Shown here: positions 32,486 to 35,947 of the stretch, piece by piece | Position numbering within the stretch: the first letter of the stretch is position 1 | Layout: each line of letters opens with the position of its first letter | IMG/VR virus record: IMGVR_UViG_2897375277_000005 | DNA length: 35,947 bases | Direction: 5' to 3' (one strand) | From: a virus | Lineage: Duplodnaviria > Heunggongvirae > Uroviricota > Caudoviricetes | Program-made: the position numbers and the translations under genes | The notes under the pieces: model-generated | Database searches by the model: none | What the model was told of the DNA's origin: nothing | Seen by the model: the letters and a program-made list of their open reading frames with translations, nothing else

Positions 32486-32642
32486 AGCTTCAGCCCCTTG
32501 TATCCGTTAAATGATTCGGCAACAATCATCACCCACCACGCGCGTAATCTCACCCCTGCGCCGTTCTCCCGCCACGGCGACAACAAAAAGCAGTAACCCC
32601 CTCCGCACGCACATGCGACCATGCCACACAGGGAGGGAGCAG
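32486..32642. promoter_or_regulatory. divergent late promoter region (FI leftward, D rightward), positional
   Basis: 157-bp gap between divergent FI and D; strong RBS (GGGAGGGAG) before the D start. Confidence 0.35.
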
Positions 32643-33743
32643 ATGACCGACACCACCATGCAATTGCTCAGTCAGGGCACAGACCCCGTGAAAATGCCGG
32701 ATTTTGATATTCTCGCCGAGGGGGAAACACTGTCCGGCGTGGCAGAGCGCCTGATGAGCCTGTCACTGACCGACAACCGGGGATTTGAAGCAGACCAGCT
32801 CACCATCACGCTGGATGATGCTGATGGTCAGTTGCAGTTGCCGCCACGGGGCGCTCGCCTGACGGTTCTCATTGGCTGGAAAGGCGAACCGCTGACAGAA
32901 AAAGGCACTTACATTGTTGATGAAATTGCTCATGAAGGACCGCCCGACAGACTGACCATTTCAGCCAGAAGCGCAGATTTTCGGGATGAATTTAACGTCA
33001 AGCGCGAAGTGTCCTGGCATGATGTGACCGTTGAGCGAGTGGTATCCGCCATCGCTCATCGGTACGGTCTGAAACCGCAAATCAGCGAAATGCTGATGGA
33101 TATCGAAATCGACCACGCCGACCAGACCGAAGAAAGTGACATGTCCTTCCTTACGCGCATGGCGGAAATGCTGGGCGCAATCACCACGGTAAAAAGCGGT
33201 AATCTGTTATTCATTATGCCAGGTGGTGGCGTGAACGCGCAGGGAAAACCATTGCCATCGTTTGCCATCACACGCAGCAGCGGCGATCGCCATCAGTTTC
33301 GCATTGCTGACCGCGAGGCGTATACAGGTGTACGCGCCTACTGGCTTGATCTTAATTACGGGAAAAAGAAAAAAGTCAGCGTGAAACGCCGCAAACCGAA
33401 AAAGGAGAAAAGCAGCAGCCGTGAAGGTGATTATATGGAGGGCGCGGAAGGCAATGTGTTTGTGTTACGCAAGACTTATCAGAACGAGCAGGCAGCAAGA
33501 CGCGCAGCGGCGGCAAAGTGGCAGCAGCTACAACGCGGAGCCGCATCATTCTCCATCACGCTGGCGCGTGGACGCGCAGAACTCTATCCCGAAATGCATG
33601 GCACGGTAACAGGATTTAAAAGCGAGATTGATAATCAGGACTGGATTATTGCAAAAGCCGAGCACACCATTGATAACAGCGGCTTTACCACGCAGCTTGA
33701 GCTTGAGGCAAAAATCCCGGAATGGATAGCGGAAACAGAGTGA
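32643..33743 (+). CDS. D: tail protein D (P2 late gene D family)
   Basis: Internal ATG 32643 with GGGAGGGAG RBS; 366 aa, matching P2 gpD size class; followed by ogr. Confidence 0.8.
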   Translation: MTDTTMQLLSQGTDPVKMPDFDILAEGETLSGVAERLMSLSLTDNRGFEADQLTITLDDADGQLQLPPRGARLTVLIGWKGEPLTEKGTYIVDEIAHEGPPDRLTISARSADFRDEFNVKREVSWHDVTVERVVSAIAHRYGLKPQISEMLMDIEIDHADQTEESDMSFLTRMAEMLGAITTVKSGNLLFIMPGGGVNAQGKPLPSFAITRSSGDRHQFRIADREAYTGVRAYWLDLNYGKKKKVSVKRRKPKKEKSSSREGDYMEGAEGNVFVLRKTYQNEQAARRAAAAKWQQLQRGAASFSITLARGRAELYPEMHGTVTGFKSEIDNQDWIIAKAEHTIDNSGFTTQLELEAKIPEWIAETE

Positions 33744-33785: not shown

Positions 33786-34046
33786 ATGTTCCGTTGTCCG
33801 CTTTGTGGCGCATCTGCCCGTATCCGCACCAGTCGTCCGGAAAATGATTCAAACACCGTGCGGCAAAAGTATTACCAGTGTAACAACCTGGAATGCGGCG
33901 TATGCTTCTCAACACTGGAAGCCTTCCATAAATTCACATCGAAACACGCCTCCGGCGTTCACTCATCAGAAGGTATCCCGTGGCATGAGCTGCCAGCTTC
34001 ACACAGGGGAAACAATCAGATGAGTTTGCCTTTACCTCAGAATTAA
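33786..34046 (+). CDS. ogr: late-gene transcriptional activator, Ogr/Delta zinc-finger family
   Basis: MFRCPLCGASARIRTSR...YYQCNNLECGVCFSTLE matches remembered P2 Ogr (MFHCPLCQHAAHARTSR...YHQCQNVNCSATFITYE). Confidence 0.85.
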   Translation: MFRCPLCGASARIRTSRPENDSNTVRQKYYQCNNLECGVCFSTLEAFHKFTSKHASGVHSSEGIPWHELPASHRGNNQMSLPLPQN

Positions 34047-34236
34047 CAGGCAGAATTGCCGGAGTAACAAAAAAGCGATAGATTACGCGCGGGTGCCTTT
34101 CGGCTGATGGTCGGAGGGAATACCCGAAGGCCAGATGTGGAAAGGCCCCGGAAAACACTTTTGTTTAACCGAGGCCCTAACCGTCTACCCTAAGCAAGTG
34201 AAAGGTTAGCGCCTCTCCGGAAAAGGAGCAAGTGCT

Positions 34237-34377
34237 ATGTCGCAAAAATCGCTTACAGCCATCACGTTCTGCGTGACGGTAATCCTCATCATCTGGATAT
34301 TGCATGGTTCGCTGTGCGAAATACGGATGAGCTTCTGGGGCGCGGAGTTTGCGGCGTTCTTACAGTGTAAGCAGTAA
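34237..34377 (+). CDS. hok: Hok/Gef-family type I toxin (46 aa)
   Basis: Translation MSQKSLTAITFCVTVILIIWILHGSLCEIRMSFWGAEFAAFLQCKQ: N-terminal TM helix, then SLCEIR and EFAAF motifs as in Hok (SLCEIR...EVAAF). AAGGAG RBS 8 nt upstream. Below the ORF-track size cut-off. Confidence 0.65.
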   Translation: MSQKSLTAITFCVTVILIIWILHGSLCEIRMSFWGAEFAAFLQCKQ

Positions 34378-34512: not shown

Positions 34513-34809
34513 ATGAGTGAAATGGTATTTTGTCGCGGATGCGGCAAGGAAATACATAAAGATGCCACATCCTGCCCCAATTGTGGAGCACCTCAAAGAA
34601 CAGCAAGTTCAAAAAGCAGAATGACAGCCGCACTACTGGCTTTCTTTTTAGGTGGTCTTGGTGCACACAAATTTTATTTAGGTAAAGTGGGGCAAGGATT
34701 CCTTTACCTTATTTTTTGCTGGACATTCATTCCGGCAATCGTGGCATTTATTGAGTTTTTTATCTATCTATGCACCTCTGATGAAGACTTTGCCCGCAAA
34801 TATGGCTAA
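34513..34809 (+). CDS. zinc-ribbon plus TM2-domain membrane protein
   Basis: N-terminal CxxC...CxxC (CRGCGKEIHKDATSCPNCG) followed by two hydrophobic helices typical of TM2-domain proteins (LAFFLGGLGAHKFYLGK...). Confidence 0.6.
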   Translation: MSEMVFCRGCGKEIHKDATSCPNCGAPQRTASSKSRMTAALLAFFLGGLGAHKFYLGKVGQGFLYLIFCWTFIPAIVAFIEFFIYLCTSDEDFARKYG

Positions 34810-34835
34810 TGCCTAGTGGGCGAATCAGAATGACA

Positions 34836-34869
34836 AACCCGCAGCGTAAAAACTGCGGGTTTTCTTTTT
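34836..34869 (+). terminator. rho-independent terminator
   Basis: AACCCGCAG-CGTAAAAA-CTGCGGGTT followed by TTTTCTTTTT. Confidence 0.65.
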
Positions 34870-34998
34870 GGTGTCCTCACAAATGAGGGCACCACCCATA
34901 AGCAATAGGCATAACAGATCGATGCAATAAATCCGATCGATAAAAACGATCGATTTGTTATCATATCGGCAGCAGTAACCACACAAGAGGTGCCGCAA

Positions 34999-35196
34999 AT
35001 GACGCAAAATGTACGATGCAAAAATTGCAACAAACTACTTGCCCGCGCCTCATTTCACTACATTGAAATAAAATGTCCGCGCTGCAAAACACTTAACCAG
35101 ATAACGAGAGCCATCGAGCACCCCACACACATGAGGAGTTATGACCGTGGGGATCGCAATCCAGCACCAACCAGCACATACACCGGAACACACTAA
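34999..35196 (+). CDS. com: Com-like zinc-finger protein (Mu Com family translational activator)
   Basis: VRCKNCNKLLARASFHYIEIKCPRCK matches Mu Com (IRCKNCNKLLFKADSFDHIEIRCPRCK); AAGAGG RBS; its 3' end overlaps the methyltransferase start. Confidence 0.65.
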   Translation: MTQNVRCKNCNKLLARASFHYIEIKCPRCKTLNQITRAIEHPTHMRSYDRGDRNPAPTSTYTGTH

Positions 35197-35947
35197 GGTT
35201 TATCAGACTGACAATGCCACGCTCTGTCGTGGGAATGCGCTGGAAATATTGCCGCTGATTGAGCCAGAAAGTATTGATGCCTTAATCACTGACCCGCCTT
35301 ACAGTTCGGGCGCGACACACAAGGCCGGACGCACCAACCAGGGCAGCCACGCAAAATATCTGAACGGCGAGAACCTTCATCGCTTTGATGGGTTTGCGGG
35401 TGAAAACATGGATGCCCGTTCGTGGGCTTACTGGACACAATTATGGATGGCACAGGCACACCGCGCAGTCAGGCCGGGCGGTTATGCCCTGGTATTTACT
35501 GACTGGCGACAACTACCAGCTTTAACCGATGCGTTTCAGGCCAGTGGCTTTACATGGCGCGGTATCATTGCGTGGAACAAGGGGAGGGGGTCACGAACAC
35601 CCCATACCGGGTATTTCCGGCATCAGTGCGAATACATTGTCTGGGGCAGCAAAGGCCATTTAGATAAATCGCCTTCGGGGCCGTTCGACGGCTGCATGAC
35701 GTTCCCGGTTATCCCGTCAAAGAAAATGCACCCGACCGGAAAACCAGAAGAACTAATGGCAGAGCTGGTCAGGACTGTGAATAGTGGCGGAACAGTCCTT
35801 GATCCTTTTATGGGGTCAGGGACAACGGGTGTGGCTGCACTGAAAGCAGGGCGAAAATTTATTGGTATAGAAACCAGTGATCATTATTTTGAGGTAGCAG
35901 CGCAGCGGCTTCGGGGGACTATTACCACAACCATTTCGGCTACATAA
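35141..35947 (+). CDS. DNA amino-methyltransferase (N6-adenine or N4-cytosine, beta-class motif order)
   Basis: DPPY motif (LITDPPYSS) followed C-terminally by the SAM-binding FxGxG motif (FMGSGTTGVAA); GAGGAG RBS. Specificity cannot be told from sequence alone. Confidence 0.8.
   Translation: MTVGIAIQHQPAHTPEHTKVYQTDNATLCRGNALEILPLIEPESIDALITDPPYSSGATHKAGRTNQGSHAKYLNGENLHRFDGFAGENMDARSWAYWTQLWMAQAHRAVRPGGYALVFTDWRQLPALTDAFQASGFTWRGIIAWNKGRGSRTPHTGYFRHQCEYIVWGSKGHLDKSPSGPFDGCMTFPVIPSKKMHPTGKPEELMAELVRTVNSGGTVLDPFMGSGTTGVAALKAGRKFIGIETSDHYFEVAAQRLRGTITTTISAT

Follow-up and report, generated by a model that had tools for sequence, protein, structure and literature searches.

A com homologue overlapping an orphan beta-class DNA methyltransferase gene in a P2-like Escherichia coli prophage: a predicted cassette of the Mu mom type

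[quoted passage not shown]

Com recognizes the sequence CC(N)2-3GAG in the hexaloop of a short hairpin located beside a translation-inhibition structure (TIS), the GUG start codon of Mom lies in the TIS stem, and the motif defined by SELEX is GAGNNCC(N)2-3GAGNNCC (Nowacka et al. 2019, PMC6483171). An adenine methyltransferase gene standing in for mom behind a com homologue has been reported for FluMu and Pnm1 (Morgan 2002) and for Pseudomonas phage B3 (Braid 2004). The enzymes Hia5, Hin1523 and Nma1821 have been characterized, Com-type control has been suggested for this group and the 5' end of hin1523 was noted to carry Com-binding sites (Drozdz 2012, PMC3299994). In the Stenotrophomonas P2-like phage Smp131, a com-like gene (orf5), called hypothetical in the Smp131 paper, overlaps a methyltransferase gene (orf4). 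The pairing of com with a methylase gene is already published, and the locus presented here is a well-preserved new example of it and not a new mechanism. A preliminary description of this DNA had suggested that Com-type control is coupled here to another DNA-modifying enzyme; the enzyme is indeed different from Mom, but com-methyltransferase coupling has been described since 2002-2012 (PMC3299994). In the literature searched we found nothing on this exact protein, on P2-like com-methylase pairs or on E. coli methylome data for the enzyme, nor any description of a beta-class payload, of P2-like cargo context in E. coli, of a retained GATC/OxyR triad overlapping the promoter or of a GUGGGG junction shared with C5 methylases. 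The value of the locus is the extension of a known concept to a beta-class payload and a P2-like context with a retained Dam/OxyR site.

The DNA analyzed here (the window, a stretch of 35,947 nucleotides) is a P2-like E. coli prophage that carries the com-methylase pair as cargo at its right (attR) end. The genes of the pair are located as follows.

34985 to 34990, plus strand: Shine-Dalgarno sequence of com, AAGAGG, 8 nt before the ATG, read from the sequence
34999 to 35196, plus strand: com, encoding a 65-aa CxxC...CxxC zinc-ribbon protein homologous to the Mu translational activator Com, identified by ORF, Pfam, PHROG and alignment
35147 to 35947, plus strand: gene of an orphan beta-class DNA amino-methyltransferase, with GUG 35147 as the likely start (the RefSeq start is AUG 35141)

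The com ORF extends from the ATG at 34999 to the stop at 35196, and an in-frame GTG further upstream (34990) would give a product of 68 aa. Its product matches Pfam PF10122 (Zn_ribbon_Com; E 9.5e-12, 44.6 bits with a cutoff of 22.9) and PHROG 13819 'gpCom control of modification' (E 2e-17), and shows 60% identity with Mu Com over 42 aa, so the preliminary description rightly called this small ORF a clear Com homologue. The zinc-ligand cysteines C7, C10, C26 and C29 are invariant in an alignment with the proteins of Mu, B3, Smp131 and an E. coli Mu-like element (L006).

The methyltransferase ORF spans positions 35141-35947 (268 aa) and its last base is the end of the window. It matches Pfam PF01555 (N6_N4_Mtase) with an E value of 2.7e-33, and its DPPY motif (aa 51-54, nt 35291-35302) precedes the FMGSG motif (aa 223-227, nt 35807-35821). 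Motif IV (DPPY) before motif I (FxGxG) is the beta-class order, in agreement with the earlier assignment of the overlapping downstream gene to the DPPY/FxGxG beta-class amino-methyltransferases. All the closest solved relatives, DpnA/M1.HpyAVI (1e-20), CcrM, MboIIA, RsrI and PvuII, are likewise of the beta class. Matches to adenine enzymes were stronger than those to N4-cytosine enzymes (1e-20 vs 2e-12) and, together with the DPPY motif, they favour an enzyme that probably methylates N6-adenine. Concerning the start codon, the Shine-Dalgarno sequence is 8 nt from GUG 35147 but only 2 nt from AUG 35141, the GUG is at the position homologous to the payload starts of Mu, L006 and a Citrobacter locus (L009), and 266-aa versions of the protein starting at the GUG are found in databases. 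On these grounds GUG 35147 is likely the start, rather than AUG 35141. The overlap of the com and methylase ORFs is 56 nt long, or 50 nt with the GUG as the start.

Compared with com-mom of Mu, the pair shows the same +1 frame relation between com and its overlapping payload; it differs in that the payload is a beta-class methyltransferase instead of Mom, and in being carried by a P2-like element instead of a transposable phage. FluMu (HI1522.1/HI1523), Pnm1 (NMA1821) and Hia5 also have a com homologue directly 5' of an orphan adenine methyltransferase gene in the place of mom (PMC3299994). Yet the enzymes of this group are Dam-related, alpha-type and sequence non-specific, with DPPY near aa 190, whereas the window enzyme belongs to the beta class of PF01555 and has no relation to them in motif order, and the com and methylase genes of Haemophilus do not overlap. 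In phage B3 the genes for Com (ORF47) and the methyltransferase (ORF48) do overlap; however, ORF48 resembles the window enzyme in DPPY only, and the pair lies among the clustered tail genes of a Mu-like siphovirus. The Smp131 enzyme has 47% identity to that of the window, but its gene pair is located beside the portal gene and has no GATC triad upstream.

Two assignments of the enzyme to known non-specific methylases were rejected. M.EcoGII, a non-specific prophage methylase, has 349 aa and is of another prophage family, and the M.EcoGII paper makes no mention of com. The Hia5/Hin1523 family is Dam-related, and its com-linked relatives match PF02086, not PF01555. Among the phage records matching the window enzyme (E<=1e-20), the ten most frequent genera do not include Escherichia, which is represented among the 40 phage matches listed by phage Chuche alone. 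The 3' end of the window allele (35880-35947), which encodes the ending RLRGTITTTISAT before the stop codon, is unlike that of the Salmonella, L008 (a contig labelled Vagococcus sp.) and Chuche alleles, which end in RLEAAIKL; this suggests that recombination or an indel has affected the attR-proximal part of the gene.

Prophage context and orphan status

Upstream of com the window carries gpD (32511-33743) and ogr (33786-34046), followed by a hok-like gene and a TM2/zinc-ribbon gene. The hok-like gene is part of a hok/sok-type toxin-antitoxin module (34091-34377), with a Hok/Gef-family ORF at 34237-34377 (phrog_251 'MokW-like host killing', E 9e-23) and an Rfam sok match at 34091-34250 whose 51.9 bits are slightly below the gathering score of 59. 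The 98-aa product of the TM2 gene (34513-34809) combines a zinc ribbon at its N terminus with a TM2 membrane domain (PF05154, E 5.5e-19); the gene is cargo between hok and com, absent in phage Chuche, and has its own terminator:

34835 to 34862, plus strand: intrinsic-terminator-like hairpin at the 3' end of the TM2 gene, a 10-bp stem followed by a T-run

Since this hairpin follows the TM2 gene, com and the methylase gene constitute a separate transcription unit. E. coli CFS3292 is 100% identical to the window over 34810-35947, and its prophage lies between pheL and raiA with the integrase at the left end and the com-methylase pair at the extreme right; there the methylase gene is followed by a hairpin and then by the host raiA. 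In Chuche, an isolated phage, the pair is located between hok and attP/int.

The best PADLOC profile for the enzyme is 'Type II methyltransferase' (E 8e-64), which would suit a Type II restriction-modification system of the ordinary kind, with this enzyme for modification and the endonuclease encoded beyond the window. However, no endonuclease gene adjoins the methylase gene in the identical and related genomes: the 3' side is occupied by the hairpin and raiA, or by attP/int in Chuche, and the 5' side by hok, TM2 and ogr. We thus consider a restriction-modification system extremely improbable. The methylase is an orphan, as had been proposed from the window, where no restriction endonuclease was seen, and the next gene beyond position 35947 is the host raiA.

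The cassette is present at >=97% identity in 172 of the 5,426 complete E. coli genomes (about 3%), where RefSeq annotates the pair as 'Com family...' and 'DNA-methyltransferase', and it also occurs in Salmonella. At this frequency the methylase could affect phage host range, the transfer of plasmids across restriction barriers and the interpretation of methylomes. One copy is interrupted: in E. coli 2014EL-1346-6 (L035, 3100-5200) an IS100 lies inside com, at a position equivalent to about 35108 of the window, and cuts the intact methylase gene off from the promoter, com and the Com site.

The junction between com and the methylase gene

Two RNA elements were predicted at the end of com.

35106 to 35122, plus strand: predicted Com RNA recognition motif, GAG-AG-CC-AUC-GAG-CA-CC, an exact fit to the bipartite SELEX motif
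35121 to 35152, plus strand: predicted translation-inhibition hairpin with outer stem CCCCAC/GUGGGG and inner stem CAUGA/UUAUG, -14.3 kcal/mol

The CC(N)3GAG core of the putative Com site is at 35111-35118 and adjoins the inhibitory hairpin. Mu shows the same arrangement, a CC(N)3GAG loop motif directly 5' of a CCCAC...GUGGG hairpin with a GUG start, in the equivalent sequence GAGCAUCCCAC-GGAGAAACAUU-GUGGG, although its hairpin is shorter and less stable (-9.5 kcal/mol). The methylase Shine-Dalgarno sequence GAGGAG (35133-35138) is in and around the tetraloop of the window hairpin, and AUG 35141 and GUG 35147 are both paired with a predicted probability of 1.0; pairing of the start was likewise predicted in Mu, L006, L009, a Desulfovibrio locus (L013) and Haemophilus. 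Start-codon pairing of at least 0.93 was also found in 7 of 33 control genes, often enough that thermodynamics alone is not diagnostic. Mean pairing of the Shine-Dalgarno/start region did not discriminate either (0.58 vs 0.56±0.12 in the 33 controls), the fold of the whole 141-nt region was nothing unusual (z = -0.29), and Rfam has no family for a com-methylase RNA element. Start sequestration was not predicted at the more distant com-methylase loci of Smp131, B3, L011 and L014, with the start codons as we chose them.

The short hairpin at the Com site, GAGC[CAUCGA]GCAC (35108-35121), has a 4-bp stem with one A.A mismatch and is not the minimum-energy fold, as RNAfold favours another 3-bp stem over the GAGC/GCAC pairing. 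The same loop, CAUCGA, is found in B3 within a GCGC/GCGC stem. Across 13 loci the 4-bp stem was paired in 47 of 52 cells, while shuffles gave 38.9±1.4 and none of 5000 reached 47; these counts come from a hand-anchored alignment, necessary because MAFFT misaligned the 13-14-nt hairpins, which is biased towards the model and leaves kinship uncontrolled. Compensatory changes produced the stems AUGC/GCAU, AUAC/GUAU, GCAC/GUGC, GCGC/GCGC and UCGC/GCGA. All five unpaired cells correspond to the third pair (A.A or C.A) in the subgroup of the window itself, and therefore the Com-site stem is weak here.

This imperfect stem would be compatible with plain translational coupling, in which ribosomes translating com through 35121-35152 would melt the hairpin with no specific activation by Com; the com ORF continues 44 nt beyond GUG 35147, so that the hairpin must be unwound in any case. 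Mu Com, though, reportedly works when supplied in trans. Moreover, the bipartite Com motif is kept in full and without change amid drifting neighbouring sequence and the zinc ligands of Com are invariant. Mu Com has also been described as a positive regulator of mom translation that binds the mRNA directly (Wulczyn 1989, cited in PMC3299994; PMC6483171). Coupling as the whole explanation appears to us improbable. Even less credit is due to a role of Com as a DNA-binding transcription factor acting on the promoter and not on the mRNA, which would follow from its RefSeq product name, 'Com family DNA-binding transcriptional regulator': the Com proteins of Mu and Haemophilus bind RNA and activate translation (PMC6483171) and the RNA motif is present in the window, so that this role is very improbable. 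Gating of the methylase start by Com bound to its RNA site is the reading that we favour.

A search of species-representative genomes with a three-sequence Com alignment (a five-sequence alignment was too diverse) returned 28 loci. Matches in Firmicutes and Anaerolineae (L017 and L025-L034) were left out as com cassettes owing to their unrelated or unclear neighbours. A DNA-modification gene is directly 3' of com or overlaps it in the window and in 13 other proteobacterial loci, and the payloads are of the following kinds.

C5-cytosine methylases (PF00145): Citrobacter L009; E. coli Mu-like elements L006 and L036
Dam-type D12 methylases (PF02086): L011, L012, L014 and L018, plus the Haemophilus Hin1523 type
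Beta-class methylases: the window, Salmonella L007, L008, Desulfovibrio L013 and phage Smp131
Mom: Mu

In the loci of the first kind (L006 2501-3707, L036 2988-4194, L009 3001-4207), a com 59-65% identical to that of the window overlaps the PF00145 gene, and the C5 methylase start is the GUG of the same CCCCAC...GUGGGG hairpin. Com-type gating thus appears to be attached to cytosine methylases too. The junction GAGCAYCCCAC...GUGGG precedes three unrelated payloads (Mom, beta methylase and C5 methylase), and GAGCACCCCAC...GUGGGG is common to the window, L006 and L009. Nucleotide identity between the window and L006/L009 falls from 70-72% to 41-45% right after GUGGGG, which places the recombination boundary of the module at the start codon itself. 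In more distant loci the two-hairpin design is kept with a changed sequence, as in the pair seen in Haemophilus, AUGC[CUUGA]GCAU followed by GCCAUAG...CUAUGGC. Among the close E. coli and Salmonella copies the enzyme has diverged more than the regulatory module; L008 and the window have 0 differences in the 49 nt of the Com site and TIS but 82 in the 684 nt of the methylase body. From these comparisons the com/hairpin junction looks like a portable module, and the gate appears to be a portable way to prevent the expression of potentially harmful DNA-modifying enzymes until they are needed.

The peptide EHPT, conserved in Com (35116-35127), is encoded by GAG CAC CCC ACA, codons that make up the 3' arm of the Com-site hairpin and the 5' arm of the inhibitory hairpin. 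The conservation of this protein motif may have RNA reasons.

The upstream Dam/OxyR region and the control of the cassette

Two further elements were located between the TM2 terminator and com.

34905 to 34954, no strand assigned: OxyR-consensus-like region with three GATCGAT sites, GATC at 34917, 34935 and 34948 (spacing of 18 and 13 nt)
34937 to 34964, plus strand: predicted sigma-70 promoter, TCGATA, a 16-bp spacer and TG-n-TATCAT, by consensus match

These GATCGAT sites are the only three in the 36-kb window, and the chance probability of three sites within 38 bp is about 3e-6 by our own arithmetic. Scored out of 20 with the E. coli OxyR consensus ATAGnTnnnAnCTAT-N7-ATAGnTnnnAnCTAT (quoted in PMC10580950), the region gave 15/20 and 14/20, the best values in the whole window (mean 4.8, sd 1.8, maximum elsewhere 13), while the OxyR site of Mu scores 13/20. 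Mu com has three upstream GATC sites with the same 18/13 spacing, also on an OxyR-like site; the spacing is found in Chuche and Salmonella as well, and L006 and L009 retain the 13-nt pair. The Mu site is reportedly bound by OxyR only when unmethylated, which is said to make mom transcription Dam-dependent.

The putative promoter is the sole promoter-like site within 34780-35200; its -35 hexamer overlaps the second GATC and its spacer contains the third. Here the window departs from Mu: the triad is 27 nt nearer com and overlaps the predicted core promoter, and the 27-nt segment that holds the C site and the promoter in Mu is absent, leaving no recognizable C-activator region. No late-promoter site of the Ogr type (TGT-N12-ACA) was found upstream of com, the one match (35074) being inside com codons. 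Without these two activator sites the arrangement resembles that of the agn43 (flu) switch of E. coli, where three GATC sites with 19/13 spacing are inside an OxyR site at the promoter; unlike the cassette, agn43 has no Com or translational layer. From the sequence we infer OxyR/Dam control of cassette transcription, which could be late lytic or phase-variable.

Com-dependent translational gating, combined with a Dam/OxyR promoter and an anti-restriction role of the orphan methylase, is in our judgement the probable explanation of the locus. The last 1.1 kb of the window would then be a self-contained expression cassette of the mom type, carried as cargo by the P2-like prophage. A sigma-70 promoter placed inside an OxyR-type site with three Dam targets would produce a single mRNA for com and the methyltransferase. 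From this mRNA com would be translated freely, with the methylase start GUG 35147 and its GAGGAG sequence locked in the hairpin; Com would bind the CC-AUC-GAG loop motif just 5' of the hairpin and open it, so that the methyltransferase would be made only once Com has accumulated. The enzyme would methylate replicating phage DNA, and incidentally host DNA, allowing the progeny to escape restriction in the next host. The predicted Com motif, the start-sequestering hairpin and the GATC triad, read by homology with Mu, lend support to the Com-type translational control suggested in the preliminary description. The locus offers a clean and experimentally tractable E. coli example of the control logic of Mu mom, with a different enzyme and in a different phage family.

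The same promoter could alternatively act in the resident prophage as a Dam/OxyR phase-variable switch like that of agn43, turning the orphan methylase ON or OFF in subpopulations, with Com still gating translation. The overlap of the triad and the OxyR-like site with the core promoter (-35 and spacer), the lack of a recognizable late-activator site upstream, the agn43-like spacing, the near-identical sequence in the related L009 and the position of the cargo between its own terminators, beside hok and the TM2 gene, are all consistent with such a switch. Yet the triad of Mu is said to give no phase variation, as transcription there reportedly requires the late activator C as well, and the window promoter is predicted from its match to the consensus only. 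Related prophage methylases, besides, are silent in lysogens (PMC5778455; PMC3299994). We regard resident-prophage switching as rather unlikely, and equally so its corollary that the function would be epigenetic or one of lysogenic conversion, instead of or besides anti-restriction. The full proposal of a Dam/OxyR-controlled phase-variable orphan methyltransferase ('phasevarion') of P2-like prophages is doubtful, a step below the switch itself. If true, it would mean a heritable ON/OFF state in lysogens, sharpened translationally by Com, and subpopulations with different genome-wide methylation. Just as doubtful is the wider proposal that the promoter, com and the GUGGGG hairpin together make up a portable gate, by which at least four unrelated DNA-modification enzymes have been captured, and that the cassette is in addition a phase-variable phasevarion. 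Com-dependent gating of an anti-restriction methylase remains our preferred reading.

Some minor features of the GATC region were also observed. The CGATCG palindromes of the triad (34934-34952) score as terminator-like hairpins on both strands, which probably reflects the repeats themselves rather than a genuine terminator. In L008, at about 2940-2960, a 31-bp deletion between GATCGAT repeats has left one GATC where the window has three; the occurrence of this enterobacterial P2-like sequence in a Vagococcus assembly suggests contamination or mislabelling. In the prophage as a whole GATC is rarer than expected, with 92 sites vs 130.5±10 in dinucleotide-preserving shuffles, yet three of them are found within 35 bp upstream of com.
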